Origin: Candidatus Methanoperedenaceae archaeon GB37
GTDB taxonomy: Archaea; Halobacteriota; Methanosarcinia; Methanosarcinales; EX4572-44
Assembly (NCBI GenBank): GCA_905171695.1
Contig: LR991653.1
Coordinates: 1,658,150 to 1,722,149, forward strand
DNA length: 64,000 nt
Reading direction: 5' to 3'
In this document: positions 2,938 to 54,924 of the stretch, one piece after another
Position numbering within the stretch: position 1 is the stretch's first letter
How the letters are laid out: the number at the start of each line of letters is the position of its first letter
Notes under the pieces: generated by a model
Seen by the model: the letters and a program-made list of their open reading frames with translations, nothing else
Told to the model about the DNA's origin: nothing
Databases searched by the model: none
Translations under genes and position numbers: made by a program

Positions 2938-2964
2938 GAACAAAAACAGAACTGTCATCCCGGT

Positions 2965-3037
2965 AGCCCGGTAGTGTAGAGGTCAATCATGCAAGGCTCT
3001 GGACCTTGCGACACAGGTTCGAATCCTGTCCGGGCTA
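2965..3037 (+). tRNA. tRNA-Gln (anticodon CUG)
   Basis: 73-nt cloverleaf. Acceptor AGCCCGG/CCGGGCT, anticodon stem CAAGG/CCTTG with loop CTCTGGA, T-arm ACAGG-TTCGAAT-CCTGT, discriminator A. No intron and no encoded CCA. Confidence 0.88.
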
Positions 3038-3179
3038 CTCTACTCTCCTATACCGTTTGGATATAAGAGACCACCAATCAGGAATACTGTTAATCCGCAT
3101 GTCACTTGGCAAGATGGTGGGGGGTGCCAGCCAGCCTCTGTAGGATCTTCTGTAGGAGCCTCGTGGTTTGCCTTGTGGT

Positions 3180-3980: not shown

Positions 3981-4858
3981 AGGAGACCAAGCCTACCAAG
4001 TGCGTCTCGAAGTGCATTCTCGGTGGCAGTCGTCCCACGATGGAGTGGGAGTCGCAGATGCCCGCTTGGAAGACCGCATAGCTCCATCGCCATCTTCACA
4101 GGCACAGGGTTCGTCTCAAGAAATAGAGCCCTTACAAGGGGGGAAAGCTCATAGTGTATCTCCAAAGCCGTCTTCATTTCCCCATTCTCAACTGCCTTGA
4201 CCATCTTGACTACCCTCTCAGGCACAAGATTTGCCGCTACCGATATGACGCCGATACCTCCGAGGCTCATGATCGGGAGCGTGAGCGCGTCATCGCCAGA
4301 GAGGACTGCAAAATCCATCTCACGTGTAGACTCAATGATCGTTGAGACCTGCTGGAGATCGCCGCTTGCTTCCTTTATCCCAACGATATTATCGATTCTT
4401 GCAAGTTCAGAGACTACATCAGGCGTCATATTCAACTGGGTCCGTCCCGGGACATTGTAGAGTATTATTGGAATTTCAACGCTCTCAGCTATCGCAGTAA
4501 AGTGTCGTATGAGTCCCTCTCTATTCGGTTTATTGTAATAAGGTGTTATGAGGAGCGCTGCGTCAGCGCCAGCGTCTTCTGCATGCTTTGTGAGAGAGAT
4601 CGCCTCGGAAGTGCTGTTAGAACCAGTGCCAGCGATCACGGGCACATCTGCATGCTCAACCACACAATCGACGACCTCCATATGCTCAGCCGTGCTCAGA
4701 GTCGCAGACTCGCCAGTGGTGCCGCAGGGAACAACCCCTGAGACGCCAGCATCTGAGAGAAACTGGAGATTCTCCACGAGTCCATCACGATCCACTCGAT
4801 CCTCTTCCGTGAAAGGAGTTATAATTGCTGGAATAACACCACCAAACACAAAGACCAC
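3977..4858 (-). CDS. dapA: 4-hydroxy-tetrahydrodipicolinate synthase
   Basis: 293 aa, DapA/NAL family (GTTGES, IVGIKEASGD). 4-nt overlap with dapB. Confidence 0.9.
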   Translation of the reverse strand: MVFVFGGVIPAIITPFTEEDRVDRDGLVENLQFLSDAGVSGVVPCGTTGESATLSTAEHMEVVDCVVEHADVPVIAGTGSNSTSEAISLTKHAEDAGADAALLITPYYNKPNREGLIRHFTAIAESVEIPIILYNVPGRTQLNMTPDVVSELARIDNIVGIKEASGDLQQVSTIIESTREMDFAVLSGDDALTLPIMSLGGIGVISVAANLVPERVVKMVKAVENGEMKTALEIHYELSPLVRALFLETNPVPVKMAMELCGLPSGHLRLPLHRGTTATENALRDALGRLGLL

Positions 4859-16258: not shown

Positions 16259-18031
16259 ATGATGCATCGGATAGGTAGTTTTCTTGAAGATCCCAGGATG
16301 AAGCTCTTGCGCCGATGGACTCTGTATGGCGTCCTGATCGGTATTGTCTCTGGGATTGGTGCTGTTATCTTCTATGGGCTTCTCTCGCTTGTTGCACACT
16401 ATACGCTCGGTGGTATTGCTGGTTATTACCCTGTTCCTCCTGCCGGTGAGGCTCCTCTCTTCGCTGAGGAGTCTGGCAAATCTCTTAACCGACTCTTTCT
16501 GCTTGTAATCCCTGCTTTTGGGGGGCTTATCTCTGGAGTGATTGTCTATACGTTTGCGCCTGAGACTGAAGGCGACGGCACTGATGCCATGATCGAGGCA
16601 TACAACCATAAGAGGGGTATTATACGCAGGAGGGTTCCGATCGTGAAGAGTATAGCCTCTGCTATAACGATTGGAACCGGGGGGAATGCCGGGAGAGAGG
16701 GTCCAATAACTCAGATCGGGGCAGGTTTTGGCTCGGCTCTTGCAGATCGTCTCTCACTCTCGGATCGGGATCGGAGGATGATGGTTCTCTGTGGCAGTGG
16801 TGCCGGGCTTGCGAGCATCTTCCGCGCTCCGTTCGGCGGGGTTCTCTTTGCTCTTGAGATATTGTACCAGCGTGATATTGAGATGGAAGCGATCATACCA
16901 GCATTCGTTTCCTCTGCAGTGGGATACTCGGTATTCACCTATGTCTTTGGATGGGGCTCCCTCTTCAGAACACCCGACTTTGTTTTTTCGCATCCGAGCG
17001 AACTCTTGTTCCACGGGGCGCTCGGTCTCATATGTGCTGGTGTTGGAATACTCTATGTGAAGACCTTCCATGGCATGCGCAAGAGAGTCTTCAAACCATT
17101 GCGGATTAAAAATCACTATAAACCGGCTATTGGCGGTCTTGCGATCGGCGTCATGGCATACTTCTACCCGGAGATACTGGGCACGGGTTATGGTTTGATA
17201 CAGGGAGCTATAGACGGAGAACTTGTACTCTCCACCCTGCTCCTTCTCCTCATGCTGAAGATACTTGCCATTTCATTTACCGTGGGCTCTGGTGGTAGCG
17301 GAGGTCTCTTTGCACCAACACTTGTGGTCGGTGCCATGCTGGGTGGTGCTTTTGGGACGGTTGCACACGAGCTCTTCCCAGGTCTTATAACTCAGCCTGC
17401 TTCCTTCGTCCTCGTTGGGATGGCTGCAATGCTTGCAGGCGTGGCGAAGATACCCATCACCGCTATAGTGATAGTCTCAGAACTGACAGGGAGCTATCAC
17501 CTCCTGGCACCGCTCATGCTTGCATCAACAGCCGCCTATGCACTCACAGGGAGCGTATCTCTCTATGAGAAACAGGTGCCGACCCGCGCAGATTCGCCGG
17601 CACACAGGAAAGAACTCACAGTGAATATACTCGAGACGATCACTGTTGGCAGAGCCATGGACACTAATATTATCACTGTGAGTCCTGAGAAACCTGTTCG
17701 GATGATCCTTGACCTCGTGTACACCTATGGACACAGAGGATACCCAGTTGTAAAGGATCAGAAGCTTATCGGTATCATCACAGTTGAAGACGTGGGGAAA
17801 GTCCCAGCAGAGGAGCGCAATACCCGTACTATCGGTGAGATAATGACGAGGAACGTGATCACAGCAACGCCAGACGAGACGCTCGAAGTGGCTCATAAGC
17901 GGCTGATAAAGCACGATATAGGGCGTCTCCCGGTAGTCCTGAAGGACGATCCTGAACGAATGGTCGGGATGCTGACAAGGTCAGACATCATCCGCATGCA
18001 TGCAAAGATCAGCAGCCAGATTGCTCGATGA
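16259..18031 (+). CDS. ClC-type chloride channel/antiporter with tandem C-terminal CBS domains
   Basis: 590 aa. GNAGREGP and GSGGSGGLFAP selectivity motifs, then a CBS pair after about residue 450. Confidence 0.9.
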   Translation: MMHRIGSFLEDPRMKLLRRWTLYGVLIGIVSGIGAVIFYGLLSLVAHYTLGGIAGYYPVPPAGEAPLFAEESGKSLNRLFLLVIPAFGGLISGVIVYTFAPETEGDGTDAMIEAYNHKRGIIRRRVPIVKSIASAITIGTGGNAGREGPITQIGAGFGSALADRLSLSDRDRRMMVLCGSGAGLASIFRAPFGGVLFALEILYQRDIEMEAIIPAFVSSAVGYSVFTYVFGWGSLFRTPDFVFSHPSELLFHGALGLICAGVGILYVKTFHGMRKRVFKPLRIKNHYKPAIGGLAIGVMAYFYPEILGTGYGLIQGAIDGELVLSTLLLLLMLKILAISFTVGSGGSGGLFAPTLVVGAMLGGAFGTVAHELFPGLITQPASFVLVGMAAMLAGVAKIPITAIVIVSELTGSYHLLAPLMLASTAAYALTGSVSLYEKQVPTRADSPAHRKELTVNILETITVGRAMDTNIITVSPEKPVRMILDLVYTYGHRGYPVVKDQKLIGIITVEDVGKVPAEERNTRTIGEIMTRNVITATPDETLEVAHKRLIKHDIGRLPVVLKDDPERMVGMLTRSDIIRMHAKISSQIAR

Positions 18032-18078
18032 AACGCGAATAGAAAGAGATAAGATAGCGAGTGAGAATAGAATAGAGC

Positions 18079-18678
18079 ATGAACTGGCTCACCATCACAC
18101 AGGGCGAGGCTTCGGTACGACTCGCACGAGATGCCATTAGATCACATTTATTGGGTGACGCAGACCCTTTGGTGCCTGAAGACCCGGTATTTCACGAAAA
18201 ACGAGGGGTATTTGTTACCCTGAACACCAGAAGACATGAGCTGCGTGGATGCATCGGGAGACCTTACCCGATCATGCCGCTTGGAGATGCCATAATAGTG
18301 TCAGCTCAGAACGCAGCCACTGAAGATCCACGATTTCCACCCCTGACGATAGATGAACTTGAGAAGGTCCTCATAGAGGTCACGATTCTCACAACACCAG
18401 AGAGGGTCGATGCCAGACCGATCGACCTGCCCAATCGAGTAGAGATTGGTCGGCATGGATTGATAGTCAGAAAAGGAGGGTATCAGGGACTTTTGCTGCC
18501 GCAGGTCGCAACAGAATACAACTTTGACGCAGAAGAGTTCTTATCGCAGACCTGCATGAAGGCAGGACTCTCACCAGACTGCTGGGTGAAAGGTGCAGAG
18601 ATCTACACGTTCGAAGGACAGATATTCGAGGAGATGCCAGACGGGACTGTGAGAGAGAAGAAGACATATAAAGAGTGA
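18079..18678 (+). CDS. AMMECR1-domain protein
   Basis: 199 aa with the LRGCIG motif characteristic of AMMECR1. Confidence 0.85.
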
Positions 18679-18732
18679 GACCTATCACTTTCTAAGGGGA
18701 GGCTGACGAAGAAGATGCGATCACGAAGATGA

Positions 18733-19866
18733 ATGCTATCGAAGAAGCATCTTCTCATCTTATTGTACGTTTCAGTCTTTCTCGGTCCCTTCGGAGGGAA
18801 CACCGTACTTGCGCTGATTCCATCACTTGAAAGCTACTTTGATGTTGATATCTCGTTTATAGCAGCATCTATCACGATTTACATGATTCCCTTCGCGTTC
18901 TTCCAGATCTTCTCAGGTGCGCTCTCGGATATATACGGAAGAAAAAAGATCATTACCTTTGGTCTGTTTACATTCTCTCTCGCGTCTCTCTGCTGTGCAT
19001 ATTCCACTGTTATCAGCTCTTTCCTTGCTGCAAGAGCGCTGCAGGGACTTGGAAGTGCGTTTGTATCCCCCACAATAATGGCTACAATCGGAGATACGTT
19101 CTCATACAGAGAGCGGGGTAAGGTGATGGGTGGATATGGTGCATCAACCACATCAGGGATTGCATTGGGACCACTCGTCGGTGGATTTCTTGCACTCATC
19201 GATTGGAGACTTGTATTCTTCATGCTCTCCCTCTTCTCTGGTGCGCTCGGACTTCTTTACCTATTCTACTTCAAATCTCCAGAAGGTGATGGAGAATTGA
19301 AGAGCGTATTTGGTAAAATGAAAGGGGTACTCACGAAGAAATCCTTTTTAATTCTCTGCACGATCGGTTTTCTCGTTTTTTTCGGAAATATTGCAGTGAT
19401 GACATTTTTATCGGATACATTGAAACTCTCTGTGACAGAAGATAGAATAGGCATTCTTCTCTCCACATTTGGATTCATAGGGATTGTGACAGCCCCTGTT
19501 GCTGGCTACCTCACAGATTCTATCGGGAGAAAGAAGACGCTACTTACAGGGCTATCCATCATGCTCTGCGCATTCTTAGTATTCCTGCCTCTTGACTCGT
19601 ATATACTGTTCTTCATCCCGATAGCGATAATGGGTATTGGAAGCACAGCCGCGTTCACCTCACTGAACACGATGGTCGTTGAGTGCACGCCAGAATCAAG
19701 AGGAGCGGCTTCTTCTATATACAATAGCTTCCGCTTTCTCGGATACGGCTTATCACCCATCGCAACTCTCCCACTCTACCTATTATCTGGTCTGGATGGG
19801 ATCGTTCTCCTACTTATATGCATAGCCCTCTTGAACATCTCAATCTCAACACGGATTCAGAGGTAG
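18733..19866 (+). CDS. MFS transporter
   Basis: 377 aa with about 12 hydrophobic segments and the MFS loop motif SDIYGRKK. Confidence 0.85.
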   Translation: MLSKKHLLILLYVSVFLGPFGGNTVLALIPSLESYFDVDISFIAASITIYMIPFAFFQIFSGALSDIYGRKKIITFGLFTFSLASLCCAYSTVISSFLAARALQGLGSAFVSPTIMATIGDTFSYRERGKVMGGYGASTTSGIALGPLVGGFLALIDWRLVFFMLSLFSGALGLLYLFYFKSPEGDGELKSVFGKMKGVLTKKSFLILCTIGFLVFFGNIAVMTFLSDTLKLSVTEDRIGILLSTFGFIGIVTAPVAGYLTDSIGRKKTLLTGLSIMLCAFLVFLPLDSYILFFIPIAIMGIGSTAAFTSLNTMVVECTPESRGAASSIYNSFRFLGYGLSPIATLPLYLLSGLDGIVLLLICIALLNISISTRIQR

Positions 19867-19989
19867 AGTGAAAGCAAATTTCATATAAAAAAGTTATATT
19901 CAATTTGCCCCCTCGCTAGAAAAATATTATTTTGGGACGTGCCCGCTTTAAAAACAAACATTTAAATAGATAGATTTAATACTAAATTT

Positions 19990-20667
19990 ATGATGAAGAT
20001 GAAAACAAAAAACTGGACTCCAAAATTCATAGTTTTAGCTATCGTTTGTTTCTTGGTCGGTGTAGGCATTGGTTTAATTGGTTATCATTATTTTTCTCAA
20101 ACCACAATTGGCAGCACAATGGCAGTTTATGAAGATCTTACCCAAGGCAACACTTCAACCAACTGGCAAATTACGAAAATAGAACCAACTAAAGAAATGG
20201 TTGAAAAGATTGTCTTTTATGAGGATGGCAAACAAGAAATTATAGACCTAAAATCTGAAGACGGAAAAGGAATAGCAAGTTTACTTACTCGCAAACTTCA
20301 TGAATTAAATCTACAAGCAACATGTGTTTTTAGCGAGGAAGATATTCGGGAAATAAAGCAAAAAGACAGAGTTGCAGAGTTAATTTTCAAGAAACCAATA
20401 GATATTACAATTTCTCAATGGACTGAGCCAGAAGAAAGATACCATATTCCTGTTGATGAAAAGGGATACAGAATTTTAGAGAATGTTGAAACTGCCATAT
20501 TTATTTTGGAAGATAATCAAGAAAGAGGATTGGAAGCACATATTTTGGTTGGTCATAGAGTTGAAGGAAGAATAGGCTATAGTTGCTGGGCAATAAACAT
20601 TAAAGAAGAAGGAAAACCGGAATTAGATAAAAGTTGGATTGATGGGATAAATAGACTAATGAAATAA
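19990..20667 (+). CDS. hypothetical N-terminally anchored protein (AT-rich island)
   Basis: 225-aa ORF with one N-terminal TM segment. I recognise no motif. Codon composition differs from flanking genes. Confidence 0.45.
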   Translation: MMKMKTKNWTPKFIVLAIVCFLVGVGIGLIGYHYFSQTTIGSTMAVYEDLTQGNTSTNWQITKIEPTKEMVEKIVFYEDGKQEIIDLKSEDGKGIASLLTRKLHELNLQATCVFSEEDIREIKQKDRVAELIFKKPIDITISQWTEPEERYHIPVDEKGYRILENVETAIFILEDNQERGLEAHILVGHRVEGRIGYSCWAINIKEEGKPELDKSWIDGINRLMK

Positions 20668-20702
20668 GCGGGAGCTTCTTTAATTTAAATTTAAAAAACG
20701 CT

Positions 20703-20875
20703 CGGTGGCAAACTCAAAATTTTTCCTTCGGAACGTTGCACTAAAATTTTGCCCTTCGGGGAATATAACAGCGATTAAGAGGTTACGAAGTCTTGCAGAC
20801 TTCTCCACCCAAATTTTTGGCTACGCCAAAAACTTCTCTTAATCGCATATGTTAGTTTCAATTGTGAGTCCGCCG
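20703..20875 (+). other. structured repeat element X1 (candidate ncRNA or attC-like site)
   Basis: Terminal helix 20703-20716/20862-20875, UUCG-type loops, 11-bp helix 20771-20781/20836-20846 enclosing two hairpins. Paralogue of X2 with compensated stem differences. Confidence 0.5.
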
Positions 20876-20878
20876 AAA

Positions 20879-21160
20879 TTACCGTTTTTTGAACCAATTA
20901 ACTAATAAACTTGAAACCAAGTAAGCTACTAATATGCTTAATGGCCAAAAATAAAAATAAGTAAATTCTCCACATCTTGGAATCATTAAACCTGTTTGAA
21001 GTAATAGACCTTCAAAACCAAGATGGACTTTATATTCAACCGAACAAGGCGACTCTAAACAACAACTCCAATAAGCGAAATTAGGGAGTATCAAAACTAA
21101 TAAAATTGTCAATAATACCTTTCCAAAAGTTGGTTTGAAAATTTCTTTGTAGTTCATCAT
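20879..21160 (-). CDS. hypothetical small Cys-containing membrane protein
   Basis: 93-aa ORF with 2-3 hydrophobic segments, bracketed by a 13-bp perfect inverted repeat (20862-20874 / 21204-21216). Confidence 0.4.
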   Translation of the reverse strand: MMNYKEIFKPTFGKVLLTILLVLILPNFAYWSCCLESPCSVEYKVHLGFEGLLLQTGLMIPRCGEFTYFYFWPLSILVAYLVSSLLVNWFKKR

Positions 21161-21203
21161 AAATTATTTAGTCTATATTCTTTAAAATACTTTTGATTTT
21201 AAT

Positions 21204-21371
21204 GGCGGACTCACAACTCTTCGGGATTTCTCACTTCGTGAGAACCGCCTGCGGCTATCCCTCGTCCTCGTTTCACTCGGAGAATATAACAGCGGATAAA
21301 CGGTTTTGGGCTAAAGCCCCTCACCCAAAGTTTGCTACCACAAACCTTCGTTTATCCGCAAAACGTTGGTT
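21204..21371 (+). other. structured repeat element X2 (candidate ncRNA or attC-like site)
   Basis: Shares GAATATAACAGCG, CACCCAAA and CGCA..GTTGGTT with X1. Has an 11-bp helix 21292-21302/21349-21359 and two internal hairpins. Confidence 0.5.
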
Positions 21372-21408
21372 GTGGGGGGTCTCTTTCCCCCTTCTGTTGT
21401 TTTTGATC

Positions 21409-23385
21409 TTACTTCTGTCTTCCCTCTACGAGTGAGTCCACTATGCTTGGGTCTGCGAGTGTGGTTGTGTCTCCGAGATCTTCTATATCGCCGGCTGCTA
21501 TCTTCTTGAGTATGCGTCTCATGATCTTTCCGCTGCGTGTCTTTGGCAGTCCCTCTGTGAACTGTATAACGTCTGGCTTGGCTATCGGGCCTATCTCTTT
21601 TCGCACGTGTGCTGCGAGTTCATTCTTGAGCTCGTCGCTCGGTGTTTCACCTGATTTCAGGATGACAAAGGCATAGATTCCCTCTCCCTTGACATCGTGT
21701 GGGAAGCCTACCACTGCTGATTCTGCCACTGCTTCGTGAGATACAAGAGCACTCTCTATCTCAGCCGTTCCCATCCTGTGTCCTGATACGTTGATCACAT
21801 CATCGACTCTGCCCATAAGCCAGAAGTATCCATCTTCGTCAATTCGGGCACCGTCGCCCGTGGTGTACACTCCTGGGAACTGGCTGAAGTATGTATCCTT
21901 GAATCGCTGGTGGTGTCCATACACGGTTCTCATGAGACCTGGCCACGGTCTTTTAATCACGAGGTTCCCGCCTTCGTTCACATCGGCTTCGGTTCCGTCA
22001 TCTCTAAGAATGGCGGGTTCTATGCCTGGGAATGGCTTTGTTGCTGAGCCAGGTTTGATAGGTATTGCTCCGGGCAGGGGTGAGATCAGTATGCCGCCTG
22101 TCTCGGTCTGCCACCATGTGTCCACGATTGGGCATCTGCCCTTCCCGATAACCTCATAATACCACATCCATGCCTCTGGGTTTATCGGTTCGCCCACTGT
22201 TCCGAGCAGCCTGAGACTTGAAAGATCTCTACCAAGTGGCCACTTGTCCCCGTCTTTCATCATCGCACGGATGGCTGTCGGCGCCGTGTAGAGGATATTG
22301 ACCTTATACTTCTCCACGATCTCCCAGAATCGATCAGGCTTCGGATAGTTTGGAACGCCTTCGAACATCAGGCTTGTTGCGCCAGAGTTCAGTGGTCCAT
22401 ATACGATGTAGCTGTGGCCTGTGACCCATCCGATGTCTGCTGTGCACCAGAATGTGTCCTCGTCCTTGTAATCGAATATCCACTTGAATGTCTGGGTCGT
22501 GTAAAGGAGATAACCAGCTGTTGTGTGAAGCACGCCCTTCGGTTTTCCTGTGCTGCCGCTTGTATACAGGATGAACAATGGATCTTCTGCATCCATCACC
22601 TCTGGCTCGCATACTGGTGAAGCATCCTTCATGAGTTCGTGGAACCACTCGTCCCGCCCCTCAACCATGTTAATATCGCTACCGGTACGCTTAACAACGA
22701 TCACATTCTTGATGCAATCACACTGTGAGACCGCCTCGTCAGCATTTGCCTTGAGTGGTATTGTCTTACCGCTTCTGAAGCTCCCGTCTGATGTTATCAG
22801 GAGCTTGCATTCGCTGTCAAGTATCCTGTCACGGAGAGCTTCTGCGCTGAATCCGCCGAAGACAACGCTGTGGATGGCTCCGATACGTGCACATGCAAGC
22901 ATTGAGATCGGAAGCTCTGGTATCATCGGCAGATAGATCGATACTCTATCACCCTTCTCAATCCCCTTGCTCTTCAAGACGTTTGCAAACTTGCAGACCT
23001 CATAGTGAAGCTGCTGGTAGGTATAGATTCTGGAATCGCCGTGTTCGCCTTCAAAGATCAATGCAGCCTTGTTCTTCTTCTCGGTCTTTAGATGCTTGTC
23101 AAGGCAGTTGTACGATGCATTCAGTTTTCCACCTGCAAACCATGTGTGCTTTGCTTCATCCGGGTCCCATGTGCTCACAGTCTCCCACTTCTTGAACCAT
23201 TCAATGTTCTCTTCTGCCTTCTCCGACCAGAACGCATCCGGGTCAGCAATAGACTTCTTATAGATCTCCTCGTACTCTGCAAGACTCTTTATATGTGCCT
23301 TTGCACTGAACTCTTTAGGAGGCTCAAACTTTCGTGTCTCTTCCATAACCGATGTGATTGTCTTCTCACTCATAATATCACCCAT
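21409..23385 (-). CDS. acs: acetyl-CoA synthetase (AMP-forming)
   Basis: 658 aa. Acs-type N-terminus, [14 protein letters not shown]-binding motif, C-terminal [11 protein letters not shown]. Confidence 0.95.
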
Positions 23386-53947: not shown

Positions 53948-54924
53948 ACGTTAACCTCCTTCACGGGCTTAAACACTCCCCTTATAAAACCGAGCCCCCA
54001 TCCCCAGAACCAGATTGCGATGAGTGCGTAGTATCTCAAAAAATCTCTCATGCCCGTTTTAGAGCCAAGATACAAACTCATTGCGCCGATCCCTATTCCG
54101 CCAATGATCAATATCGAGAGTGCCCCCCATAGGTACACCATATTCGATAGTGAGAGGATGGATAAAAAAAATATTGCGGATATGATCAGAGACGGCGTGT
54201 AATGAAACCATCTCCCCATATCTCTATGCAGCTTTATTGCCTGCATCCGCCCAATTCCATAATTCCATGCCATCTTCATGAATCTTCCCCAGGTTGGTCT
54301 CCTGTAGTGATAAACAACAGCATCCGGCGTATATAAAATTCTGTATCCATTTTCTCTTATCCGATAGTCCAGTTCCTCATCATCTACGGTAACAAGGCTG
54401 TGATTGAATCCTCCTACCTCCTCCAATACGCTTTTTCTATACATCACATTACAGGTAGGGTTATGGTATATCTCTCTGACTTCTTCCTCACAAAATCCAT
54501 ACCTTGCCCCGGGTTTGCTCAAAAAAGATAATATCACACCCACGCATTTTGCGAATGCGCTGTCATCTTCAGGTGTTATATTCGGACCACCCACTGCTGC
54601 AACATCATCCTTGAAATGCTTTATAAGCTCTTTAATCCAGCCTCTATCAACCACGCAGTCAGCGTCCGTAAACGCTATAAATTTGCCTTTTGCCTGCCTC
54701 ACACCAATCTCTCTTGCATAGCTTATTGTTCCTTTATCTTCAAAGATTACTTTACATCCATATTTTTCAGCAATCCCCACCGTATCATCCGCAGAATGTC
54801 CATCCACAATTATCACTTCCAGCCTATCTTCTGGACATTCCAGATTCTGAATAGAAAATAGACATTTTTCGAGTATACCACCGTTGTTTTTTGTTGGGAT
54901 AACAATGGAAATAATATCGTTCAT
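53944..54924 (-). CDS. glycosyltransferase family 2 with C-terminal membrane segments
   Basis: MNDIISIVIPTKNN...IIVDGHSADDT...FTDADC. ATG at 54924 preferred within tracked ORF 53944..54945. Confidence 0.85.
   Translation of the reverse strand: MNDIISIVIPTKNNGGILEKCLFSIQNLECPEDRLEVIIVDGHSADDTVGIAEKYGCKVIFEDKGTISYAREIGVRQAKGKFIAFTDADCVVDRGWIKELIKHFKDDVAAVGGPNITPEDDSAFAKCVGVILSFLSKPGARYGFCEEEVREIYHNPTCNVMYRKSVLEEVGGFNHSLVTVDDEELDYRIRENGYRILYTPDAVVYHYRRPTWGRFMKMAWNYGIGRMQAIKLHRDMGRWFHYTPSLIISAIFFLSILSLSNMVYLWGALSILIIGGIGIGAMSLYLGSKTGMRDFLRYYALIAIWFWGWGLGFIRGVFKPVKEVNV

Follow-up and report, generated by a model that had tools for sequence, protein, structure and literature searches.

Probable recombination sites of an integron-like variant close two gene cassettes in an archaeal genome

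The insertion and its two structured elements

We analysed a 64-kb stretch of archaeal DNA (hereafter the window) in which two structured elements, X1 and X2, lie together with two open reading frames, ORF225 and ORF93, in an AT-rich island of 1.47 kb. In this Syntrophoarchaeum-like archaeon, the island separates the MFS transporter gene from the acs gene. Using a 98%-identical MFS protein, we located a relative (L063) that is 98.6% identical upstream and that joins the sequence ending at position 19893 of the window straight to the sequence starting at 21366. Because L063 lacks exactly 19894–21365 (ORF225, X1, ORF93 and X2), the alignment identifies these 1,472 bp as a precise, apparently site-specific insertion at G|TT. 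Both junctions lie at G|TT relative to the empty site, which fixes the position of the crossover, and there is no target duplication. A relative at 84% has a different synteny past its MFS gene (purL) and is therefore uninformative about the insertion. Scans of metagenomes for the predicted empty site and for the acs terminator returned no match.

The host half of the left junction (19882–19893, + strand) consists of CATATAA, which resembles a Xer arm, followed by AAAAG, and ends at the crossover base G19893. It is continuous with the empty site of L063, which reads ...CATATAAAAAAAGTTGGAAAAAGTTGGTTGTGGGG..., and has the same layout as the compact sites adjoining recombinase genes that are described below. 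On the right, the host flank outside the element (21366–21408) reads TTGGTTGTG, followed by a GGGGGG/CCCCC hairpin and a T-run, and is contiguous with the left flank in the relative without the insert. The original prediction had assigned this hairpin and T-run to X2, but they are host sequence, present in the relative that lacks the insert, and lie downstream of the acs gene (− strand).

Between these junctions are two units. Cassette 1 (958 bp, 19894–20851, + strand) contains a right arm, an outer-stem strand, ORF225 and X1 up to the crossover G. It starts at the exact point where similarity to the empty-site relative stops and ends at the G of GTT in X1, and its size and one-ORF content are those found in arrays elsewhere. 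Its first bases are the right arm TTATATTCAAT (19894–19904, +), the only exact copy in the window, which is identical to the array-head arm of four other loci (L055, L056, L058 and L059), matches 8 of the 11 bases of the P. abyssi dif right arm TTATATCTAAA and, together with G20851, is complementary at 9/9 positions to the X1 left arm GAATATAAC (20761–20769). The bases that follow, TTGCCCCCTCGC (19905–19916, +), can be read from the sequence as the outer-stem 3′ strand of the cassette 1 site, pairing at 9 of 12 positions with 20700–20711; analogous outer stems of 8–14 bp occur in the same four loci. The cassette gene, ORF225 (19990–20667, +), encodes 225 aa with a hydrophobic N-terminal stretch. 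X1 (20700–20851, +), which scores 106.8 bits with our covariance model R1 (E = 6e-20), comprises an outer-stem 5′ strand (20700–20711), the helices of a 5′ arm (20715–23/20743–51, 20725–26/20730–31 and 20752–54/20758–60), the left arm GGGGAATATAA (20758–20768), helix P1 (20771–81/20836–46), helix P2 (20781–83/20807–09, with a hairpin at 20787–92/20798–803), the junction CAAAT, helix P3 (20814–20/20826–32) and the crossover base G20851, all on the + strand.

Cassette 2 (514 bp, 20852–21365, + strand) has the same plan, with the right arm TTAGTTTCAAT (20852–62, +), the outer-stem 3′ strand TGTGAGTCCGCC (20863–74, +), a cassette gene and X2 up to the crossover base G21365, and its 3′ boundary is exact against the empty site. 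Its gene, ORF93 (20879–21160, −), encodes a small hydrophobic protein and is antisense to the sites. X2 (21204–21365, +; R1 79.4 bits, E = 5e-14) consists of the outer-stem 5′ strand GGCGGACTCACAA (21204–16), which pairs 13/13 with 20862–74, a type-B 5′ arm that includes a hairpin at 21229–34/21238–43, the left arm GGAGAATATAA (21279–89), P1 (21292–302/21349–59), P2 (21303–05/21323–25, with a hairpin at 21308–11/21316–19) and P3 (21330–34/21341–45), again all on the + strand. When rebuilt in its circular form, the X2 site folds as single-stranded DNA at −40.9 kcal/mol (z = −6.99).

X1 and X2 are spaced 521 nt apart, both on the + strand. The 13-mer that they share, GAATATAACAGCG, has exactly two copies in the 64-kb window (20761–20773 and 21282–21294), both of them on the + strand, and CACCCAAA is also common to the two elements. 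The predicted 11-bp helices, which correspond to P1, are each 100% complementary, and they differ at positions 4, 5, 9 and 10 with 4/4 changes compensated. Likewise, the proposed inverted repeat between the 3′ arm assigned to X1 (20862–74) and the 5′ end of X2 (21204–16) is a perfect 13-bp repeat (13/13). Folding energies fall below those of shuffled controls (z = −4.99 for X1 and −2.54 for X2), and structure conservation in X1 and X2 exceeds chance. Two other assignments had to be revised: the long-range helix thought to close X1 is a hybrid whose 3′ strand is part of the next cassette, and the TATA-like boxes and terminators listed as parts of the elements are not features of the family.

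A structurally conserved family

The family seen in two copies in the original prediction extends to other archaea. A genome-wide scan returned 57 loci, compared with ~9 expected by chance, and ~45 of these are true homologues in archaeal MAGs, mostly DPANN; model R1 gave 98 matches at E<1, of which ~80 have E<0.01. The family is also found in MAGs labelled Patescibacteria and several euryarchaeal, Asgard and TACK lineages. As the homologues all come from MAGs, and the loci examined are 8-kb pieces of fragmented ones, these taxon labels and the linkage of genes to sites depend on assembly and binning. The family was gathered with a fixed 20-mer, with the 5′ strands of P0 and P1 free to vary only where the pattern allowed, and its diversity is therefore under-sampled. 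Scans of viral contigs with the family patterns produced no match and hence no sign of a viral family.

Across 31 members, 89% of the cells in the core fold are paired, compared with 25–45% when the partners are slid. The covariation expected of a functional fold is present, with 145 double-change cells compared with 47 ± 6 in shuffles (0/500 shuffles reach the observed count). The 5′ arm is 94.9% paired (63–65% in the control). P0 (TATAAC/GTTATA) is 85.5% paired, with invariant AA/TT pairs, and P1 is a continuous helix of 10–11 bp that is 94.8% paired, with no bulges or extrahelical bases and with an adjoining spacer of 1 nt on the 5′ side and 3–5 nt on the 3′ side. The motifs CCCAAAT and ACTTC are conserved at the junction. 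The X family thus keeps a three-way-junction fold that is backed by covariation and, because this fold is maintained through compensatory change, the core is under selection.

A fold of this kind could belong to an RNA, and the original prediction had offered as one reading a structured noncoding RNA family transcribed from the + strand. Such a family might comprise 3′UTR or stability elements, or a small RNA that mobile genes carry. The strong covariation, the low folding energy on the + strand and the AT-rich stretches upstream fit such an RNA, although covariation is the same for RNA and for folded single-stranded DNA and cannot separate them. The wobble pairs are divided: P0 and P1 together contain 21 G-T and 8 A-C pairs, as an RNA would favour, but P2 and P3 lean the opposite way (6 and 13), and the overall counts (27 G-T vs 21 A-C) do not single out a strand or provide a clear G-U excess. 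Searches of Rfam 15 returned only a tRNA at gathering thresholds and, at E≤10 over 20500–21600, one chance-level match on the other strand.

The hairpin loops also argue against an RNA. C(UUCG)G-type loops had been placed on the + strand, but their register was wrong. Of the family's 85 stem-bearing TTCG sites, 73 have the longer stem in the C(TTC)G triloop register and 3 in the tetraloop register, and the TTCG sites of the window at 20822 and 21235 have stems of 8 and 7 bp as triloops, compared with 0 as tetraloops. The loops are 3-nt TTC or TAC loops rather than UNCG tetraloops; C(TTC)G was counted 55 times and T(TGC)A 36 times in the family, and 42% of loops read T..C on the top strand (G..A on the bottom), compared with 8% in shuffles. 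C(TTC)G triloops are GAA DNA triloops read on the other strand. On the bottom strand the hairpin loops read GAA, GTA and GCA. All three are stable DNA triloops, which makes this the probable folded strand. Finally, each copy draws the second strand of its outer helix from the opposite end of its cassette, which an RNA from one locus could not use; a helix split between neighbouring units is expected of a recombination site that is cut by integration. The arrays, head sites, recombinase link and precise insertion are features of DNA. An RNA reading of X1 and X2 is thus unlikely, and we give it very little weight.

Arrays, recombinases and known recombination systems

By the definition used for integrons (two or more sites <4 kb from one another, oriented alike and with intervening ORFs), X1 and X2 form an array, and arrays of 3–6 sites are present at ten loci (L012, L015, L020, L021, L030, L031, L042, L047, L052 and L069). 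In these arrays all copies lie on one strand, with a median unit of 946 bp and mostly one ORF per unit. The flank after one site complements the 5′ end of the next with a score of at least 10 in 8/33 consecutive pairs, compared with 1.7% of random pairs and 2/33 self pairs. That only 8 of the 33 pairs have a strong split outer stem counts against the explanation we prefer, recombination sites that are split on integration.

The most recurrent neighbour of the arrays is a tyrosine recombinase gene, which in 7/7 loci is found 5′ of the array, at its head, and in 4/7 has a compact dif-like site beside it. Head sites of the form arm, 5–7 nt, TTATATTCAAT adjoin the recombinase gene in L055, L056, L058 and L059, and then carry 8–14 nt complementary to the 5′ end of the first array site. 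In L012 and L048 we found no compact head site, and the recombinase is co-directional with the array. The regex scan for dif-like sites was very noisy, and we kept only sites with ATTGAATATAA or TTATATTCAAT. All six array-head proteins match NF040815 (recomb_XerA_Arch) best, with 233.7 bits for L012 (cut-off 220) and 125–204 bits, below the cut-off, for the others, several of which are truncated. TIGR02249 matches these proteins in two pieces (profile positions 2–170 and 236–306), also below its cut-off. Aligned to VchIntIA (2a3v), the array-head recombinase has 24 residues where VchIntIA has 66, whereas its alignment to XerA (4a8e) is one continuous stretch. Judged from these alignments, the array-head recombinases lack the IntI-specific insert and fit archaeal XerA best, and they tie the family to array heads that combine a predicted XerA-like recombinase gene with a compact dif-like site. 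C-5 DNA methylase genes also recur near X arrays. The 64-kb window encodes no tyrosine recombinase; recombination activity at its sites is thus only putative, and its cassettes may be stranded.

The textbook example of single-gene capture is the integron, defined by two features, IntI and attC sites that bear extrahelical bases. The X arrays resemble integrons in several respects: the sites form same-strand arrays with about one promoterless ORF per unit, are conserved in structure and variable in sequence through compensatory change, and have boxes like the inverse core and core (...TAAC/GTTA...) that pair, with crossover at G|TT. The array head has a simple attachment site and the gene of a tyrosine recombinase, which in most cases is divergent; arrays that lack a recombinase are frequent; and the bottom strand has a stable GAA-type loop, as in attC(aadA). 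The X boxes fit the R″ (RYYYAAC) and R′ (GTTRRRY) consensus at 6/7 and 5–6/7 positions, respectively.

Given this architecture and the ATATAAC...GTTATAT pair, the X sites might be canonical attC and the window might hold an ordinary CALIN, with a genuine IntI encoded outside it moving the cassettes. Archaea, Nanoarchaeota among them, do have integrons with IntI and canonical attC (Ghaly et al., 2022; PMC9668308), and C-5 DNA methylase genes, which recur near X arrays, are enriched among the Nanoarchaeota cassettes (PMC9668308 data). However, the sites themselves differ. A proxy attC model (R2), which we built from nine validated archaeal attCs (PMC9668308 Data S9), detected all four attCs of a class 1 integron (L075) at 23–50 bits but no X site in the window and 13 array loci (168 kb, E≤10), and with filters off its best hit in 19800–21500 was 6.6 bits, away from X1 and X2. 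None of the 74 loci contains the canonical 5′ motif, and none of the family motifs and 12 contig prefixes that we searched for is present in the supplement of the archaeal integron paper (PMC9668308). The nine validated attCs fold with spacers of roughly 5 by 5 nt and single-base bulges, whereas X has a perfect P1, spacers of 1 nt and 3–5 nt, and neither an unpaired central spacer nor extrahelical bases. X is also larger, at ~190 nt: its conserved 5′ arm forms several hairpins, an outer stem extends past the R box, and the three-way junction and its sequences are conserved; its arms reach 11 nt and resemble dif arms; and the linked recombinases appear to be XerA-like rather than IntI-like. We therefore consider canonical attC unlikely. 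The alternative originally offered to RNA, an attC-like two-cassette array without an integrase, is borne out in its essentials by the same-strand arrays, the head recombinase in related loci, the precise insertion and the absence of a recombinase from the window, but the sites are not canonical attC. We also considered P1 as an inverted second arm and rejected this, as the P1 strands are direct rather than inverted copies of the arm; an analogy to the L box is thus unproven.

The second point of comparison is Xer/dif. In addition to the NF040815 match, the 11-nt arms GGAGAATATAA and TTATATTCAAT resemble P. abyssi dif (ATTGGATATAA-TCGGCC-TTATATCTAAA), compact arm-spacer-arm sites with 5–7-nt spacers adjoin the recombinase gene, and integration proceeds without target duplication, with cleavage at the arm/spacer border. 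A layout of two 11-bp inverted arms with a 6–8-bp spacer fits both the compact head sites and the left junction in the window. In X1 and X2, however, the arms are ~95 nt apart and come within 6–8 nt only if the core is folded out. Whereas dif is a single 28-bp double-stranded site per chromosome, at the terminus, that serves dimer resolution, X occurs in arrays, with its arms set around a structured core and each site attached to a gene. We rejected a plain double-stranded dif reading of X because of this distance and because the core is under structural selection. Some mobile elements (IMEX) exploit the Xer machinery of their host; in one of them, CTX phage, a folded single-stranded attP is a substrate of XerCD.

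A further explanation is that X represents the ends of non-autonomous transposons or hairpin elements (MITE, or PATE of IS200/IS605, mobilized by HUH or DDE enzymes), or else plain dif-like IMEX sites whose fold is irrelevant. Hairpin-rich DNA and insertion without target duplication would fit such elements, a DDE transposase fragment lies near the L001 cassettes, and the similarity of the arms to P. abyssi dif and the existence of compact two-arm sites agree with the IMEX version. Against this, no HUH or TnpB genes recur near the arrays, where the tyrosine recombinase is the only recurrent enzyme, and the copies are not dispersed but stand in direct, ordered arrays with one gene per unit. The selection on the core fold and the separation of the arms, too wide for a conventional dif-type site, also speak against it, and we regard this explanation as highly improbable.

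The proposed system and its cassettes in other genomes

We conclude that X1 and X2 are very likely DNA recombination sites that each close one mobile cassette, and that they belong to a variant of the integron theme. The window would then hold a two-cassette array without a recombinase, which is most likely CALIN-like. We propose that a complete site of ~190 nt, whole only in the excised circular cassette, would consist of the outer stem, the hairpin-rich 5′ arm, the 11-nt left arm (as in X2), the three-way-junction core and a right arm that is complementary to the left arm and resembles an archaeal dif arm. The strands would be exchanged at the G|TT that borders the right arm on its inner side, so that an integrated cassette would start with the right arm and the outer-stem 3′ strand and end with the rest of the site. 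The reaction would be catalysed by a XerA-like tyrosine recombinase, which would have to act in trans on these cassettes because the window encodes none, and X would act as folded single-stranded DNA, like integron attC. The circular cassettes are predicted to have the junctions ...CCGCAAAACG|TTAGTTTCAATTGTGAGTCCGCC and ...CGCATATG|TTATATTCAATTTGCCCCC.

On balance, we lean towards a broader view in which these sites represent a previously unrecognised gene-capture system, analogous to integrons, that uses a XerA-like recombinase and large folded sites with two dif-like arms around a three-way junction, is widespread in DPANN and moves single genes between very distant hosts; it could have an origin independent of IntI or reflect a Xer-like ancestral state. 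We found no description of Xer-linked cassette arrays in DPANN or CPR in the literature. If this view is right, the capture of genes as cassettes extends beyond the IntI lineage, the X-type system probably escapes IntegronFinder and other standard tools, and DPANN symbionts, their hosts and other archaea have a concrete vehicle for gene flow. It would also matter for the long-standing proposal that Xer recombinases gave rise to IntI. An array-head recombinase, its compact site and an X site provide a testable substrate-enzyme pair.

Both cassette genes occur in other genomes. ORF225 has 139 homologues, 80–90% identical, in MAGs labelled with very different phyla; its only match in Pfam is a weak one to DUF4307, and PADLOC gives nothing. 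For ORF93, neither Pfam nor PADLOC gives a function. It has 15 homologues (63–88% identity), and in L069–L071, too, it lies between X-like sites that occupy the opposite strand. The cassette 2 module itself recurs in the L069 array, 91% identical, with ORF93 antisense between two sites, and the segment shared with the window runs from the right arm to the next left arm. Discrete modules of one or a few genes bounded by Xer-type sites in different contexts are also known as pdif modules ('Xer cassettes') on Acinetobacter plasmids, where the sites are 28 bp long, alternate in orientation and depend on XerC and XerD (PMC7399989). In contrast, X sites are all in direct orientation, ~190 nt long and folded, with a single, predicted XerA-like enzyme. 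The window and L069 have different three-way-junction cores in a cassette 2 that is otherwise 91% identical; a single crossover at G|TT does not account for this swap.

The insert and its empty site

The two related elements X1 (20700–20851) and X2 (21204–21365), both on the + strand of the window, are most likely sites of recombination, one for each of two mobile gene cassettes, and would act like the attC sites of integrons. The elements themselves match their original description: the window has just two exact copies of the shared 13-mer GAATATAACAGCG, each on the + strand, and the helices at 20771–20781/20836–20846 and 21292–21302/21349–21359 and the 13-bp inverted repeat at 20862–20874/21204–21216 are perfect. 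Both elements fold more stably than shuffled sequence (z = -4.99 for X1, -2.54 for X2). The AT-rich segment at 19850–21200 (G+C ~33%; genome 50%) has an MFS transporter gene on one side and acs on the other, and holds ORF225 on the + strand and ORF93 on the - strand.

Across CLC-AMMECR1-MFS the window shares 98.6% identity with a 3.1-kb NCBI contig (L063), which then reads ...CATATAAAAAAAGTTGGAAAAAGTTGGTTGTGGGGTGTCTATTCCCCCC..., such that the left flank of the window (to G19893) and its right flank (from T21366) form one unbroken alignment. Because the flanks are contiguous in L063, window 19894–21365 (1,472 bp) is a precise insertion between the G and TT of a GTT (G/TT), and it has no target duplication. 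The insert consists of cassette 1 (19894–20851, ORF225 and X1) and cassette 2 (20852–21365, ORF93 and X2). The flank alignment also assigns the G-rich hairpin and T-run 3' of X2, previously counted with the element, to the host. The left junction, CATATAA-AAAAG-TTATATTCAAT, has the same layout as the sites found at the heads of cassette arrays; the window contains no recombinase gene.

Exactly at the integration point, L063 has one additional tandem copy of an 11-nt sequence (AAAAAGTTGG A / AAAAAGTTGG, at 3050–3075, the equivalent of junction 19893/21366), which may be a target polymorphism or have arisen as a footprint or by slippage. The host is Syntrophoarchaeum-like (window 16259–19866 compared with L064–L067). 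For its MFS protein, identity is 84% with the counterpart in 'Methanosarcinales archaeon ex4484_138' and 74% with the one in Ca. Syntrophoarchaeum. The 84% relative keeps the CLC-AMMECR1-MFS order and has purL, not acs, after MFS.

Fold and strand of the X sites

We tested an alignment of 31 cores against one specified fold, made up of P0 (TATAAC/GTTATA), P1 (10–11 bp), P2 (GG(U)/(A)CC of CACCCAAA, enclosing hairpin 1) and P3 (hairpin 2). In this fold 89% of cells were paired, versus 25–45% with slid partners, and double-change cells numbered 145 versus 47 ± 6 in shuffles, the variation seen in the 5' strands of P0 and P1 being limited by the 20-mer used for collecting the cores, which fixed part of both. 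In 500 shuffles, covariation never rose to the observed level. P2 was recovered independently by RNAalifold, and the type-A 5' arm was 94.9% paired, versus 63–65% when slid one column.

The first of two readings originally proposed was a structured RNA transcribed from the + strand; the upstream arms had been described as carrying C(UUCG)G-type loops. At 85 TTCG sites, the stem was longer with a triloop register in 73 cases and with the UNCG register in 3, and the 5' arm pair 63/74 covaries in the triloop register. A survey of 325 perfect-stem hairpins from 80 elements yielded 55 C(TTC)G and 36 T(TGC)A loops; T..C loops on the top strand, equivalent to G..A on the bottom strand, made up 42% (8% in shuffles), and G..A loops on the top strand 3%. 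Read on the complementary strand these loops are C(GAA)G, C(GTA)G and T(GCA)A, which are very stable GNA triloops of DNA hairpins, as in d(GCGAAGC). The same motif is found in attC(aadA), whose sequence we checked, on its bottom strand. Wobble counts were indecisive (27 G-T, 21 A-C). We infer that the substrate is folded single-stranded DNA, probably the bottom strand, and consider a + strand RNA unlikely.

Cassette arrays and the linked recombinase

A covariance model of the X-site core (R1) gave 98 matches at E<1 in the comparison loci, in arrays whose members share a strand (L021, for instance, has six, and L031 and L047 have five apiece); X1 (106.8 bits) and X2 (79.4 bits) were its only matches in the window. 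Two adjoining near-copies of GAATATAACAGCG within a long ORF (54558–54583, - strand, 2 mismatches each) are probably due to chance, as R1 has no match there. Array units have a median length of 946 bp, most with one ORF, and the largest ORF runs in the direction of the sites in 22 units and against it in 13.

In a cassette model, only the circular form of the cassette would contain a complete site, since integration at G/TT would leave the last part of the site at the cassette's other end. The outer stem is split as this model predicts. The 42 nt after the GTT of one site and the 5' end of the next reached a complementarity score of at least 10 in 8 of 33 pairs; random pairs did so in 1.7% of cases and self pairs in 2 of 33. 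The start of cassette 2 (20862–20874) pairs at 13 of 13 positions with the start of X2, and the start of cassette 1, TTATATTC (19894–19901), together with the crossover G in front, is complementary at 9 of 9 positions to the left arm of X1. The circular-form site reconstructed for cassette 2 folds as single-stranded DNA at -40.9 kcal/mol (z = -6.99).

In L055, L056, L058 and L059, a compact site, [arm]-5..7 nt-TTATATTCAAT, adjoins a recombinase gene, and the 8–14 nt directly after this site complement the first X site's 5' end. The consensus after the G at the 3' end of the X core is likewise TTATATTCAAT, which shares 8 of 11 bases with the right arm of Pyrococcus abyssi dif. In L056 (~2085–2200, 2960–3000), L055 and L059, the ORF of the first cassette is flanked by a further pair of complementary stretches, ATGGGGTCG / CGACCCCAT; this pair sits outside the 8–9 bp outer stem, and therefore the complete site may exceed 190 nt.

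When all ORFs of the loci were clustered, the most recurrent array neighbour was a tyrosine recombinase (PF00589 and PF13495), located 5' of the array in 7 of 7 loci and divergent in four of these. Its best family match is archaeal XerA (NF040815), with the L012 protein above the curated cut-off. The integron-integrase profile matches in two pieces only, skipping positions 171–235; the array recombinase has 24 residues in place of 66 in VchIntIA and aligns without a break to P. abyssi XerA, so the IntI-specific domain is absent. A XerA-like enzyme would be the one to act on X sites.

The second original reading, attC-like sites in a two-cassette array, stands for cassette sites with precise G/TT insertion and falls for canonical attC. 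Folds of the nine archaeal attCs with experimental validation (PMC9668308, Data S9) differ in having ~5 by 5 nt spacers and single-base bulges. A covariance model built from these nine (R2) recovered 4 of 4 attCs of a class 1 integron (L075); it matched no X site in the window or 13 array loci, and reached at most 6.6 bits at 19800–21500 with filters off. R1 had no match in the class 1 integron, and the canonical attC 5' motif occurs in none of the loci. The X sites were negative in three defining tests of the attC family and are linked to XerA-like recombinases. Neither the family motifs nor 12 of the family's contig prefixes were found in the supplement of the archaeal integron paper (PMC9668308), and a literature search found no description of Xer-linked cassette arrays.

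Cassette genes and hosts

ORF225 has 139 homologues, many 80–90% identical, in MAGs labelled Methanoxibalbensis, Diapherotrites, Micrarchaeota, Parcubacteria and Actinomycetia; such identity across very different labels points to a mobile gene. On the Methanoxibalbensis contig, an X2-like element lies 3' of the homologue and a degenerate one 5' of it. Four Diapherotrites-labelled loci (L002–L005; gene at 4001–4654 in L002) carry an 84% identical homologue without an adjoining X site, between genes for a GntR/MarR-type regulator and an Apyc1-like metallo-beta-lactamase, and the gene therefore exists outside cassettes too.

ORF93 has 15 homologues, and in L069–L071 it again lies antisense between two X-like sites, inside a five-site array. 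Cassette 2 is 91% identical to L069 over window 20830–21292, a stretch that takes in the right arm, outer stem, ORF93, type-B 5' arm and left arm and ends at the core start, at GAGAATATAACAG. The three-way-junction cores beyond (window 21290–21365, L069 3790–3868) show no relationship, which means that core and remaining cassette are exchanged separately. Across the family, 5' arm types A, B and C and P1 variants also occur in all combinations. Both observations suggest a putative second exchange point at the invariant left arm.

Genes recurring in or near arrays (L007, L015, L020, L021, L022, L024, L029, L048, L050) encode a C-5 DNA methylase, an AAA_14/DUF4143 ATPase, a GNAT acetyltransferase, a nucleotidyltransferase (NTP_transf_2) and DUF5680, a gene set typical of cassettes with accessory or defence-like cargo. 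Among Pfam families, C-5 methylase is also the most enriched one in Nanoarchaeota cassettes (PMC9668308).

Scanning one genome per species with the pattern GRGAATATAACAGCGRWTAA yielded 57 loci, versus ~9 expected by chance, with the whole element in ~45; viral contigs gave no match. Archaeal hosts are Nano-, Woese-, Pace-, Aenigm-, Iain- and Altiarchaeota, as well as Thermococci, Thermoplasmatota, Methanosarcinales, Methanomicrobiales, Methanophagaceae, Jordarchaeum, Thermoproteota and Nitrososphaerota. Several bacteria-labelled MAGs, mostly Patescibacteria, are also carriers. Some arrays occur in MAGs labelled as ordinary bacteria: Nitrospinae (L012), Bacteroidota (L048), Gammaproteobacteria (L011, L041) and Cloacimonadia (L051). 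These short contigs may be mis-binned DPANN DNA or reflect real cross-domain spread; the recombinase of the Nitrospinae-labelled L012 nonetheless passes the archaeal XerA model.
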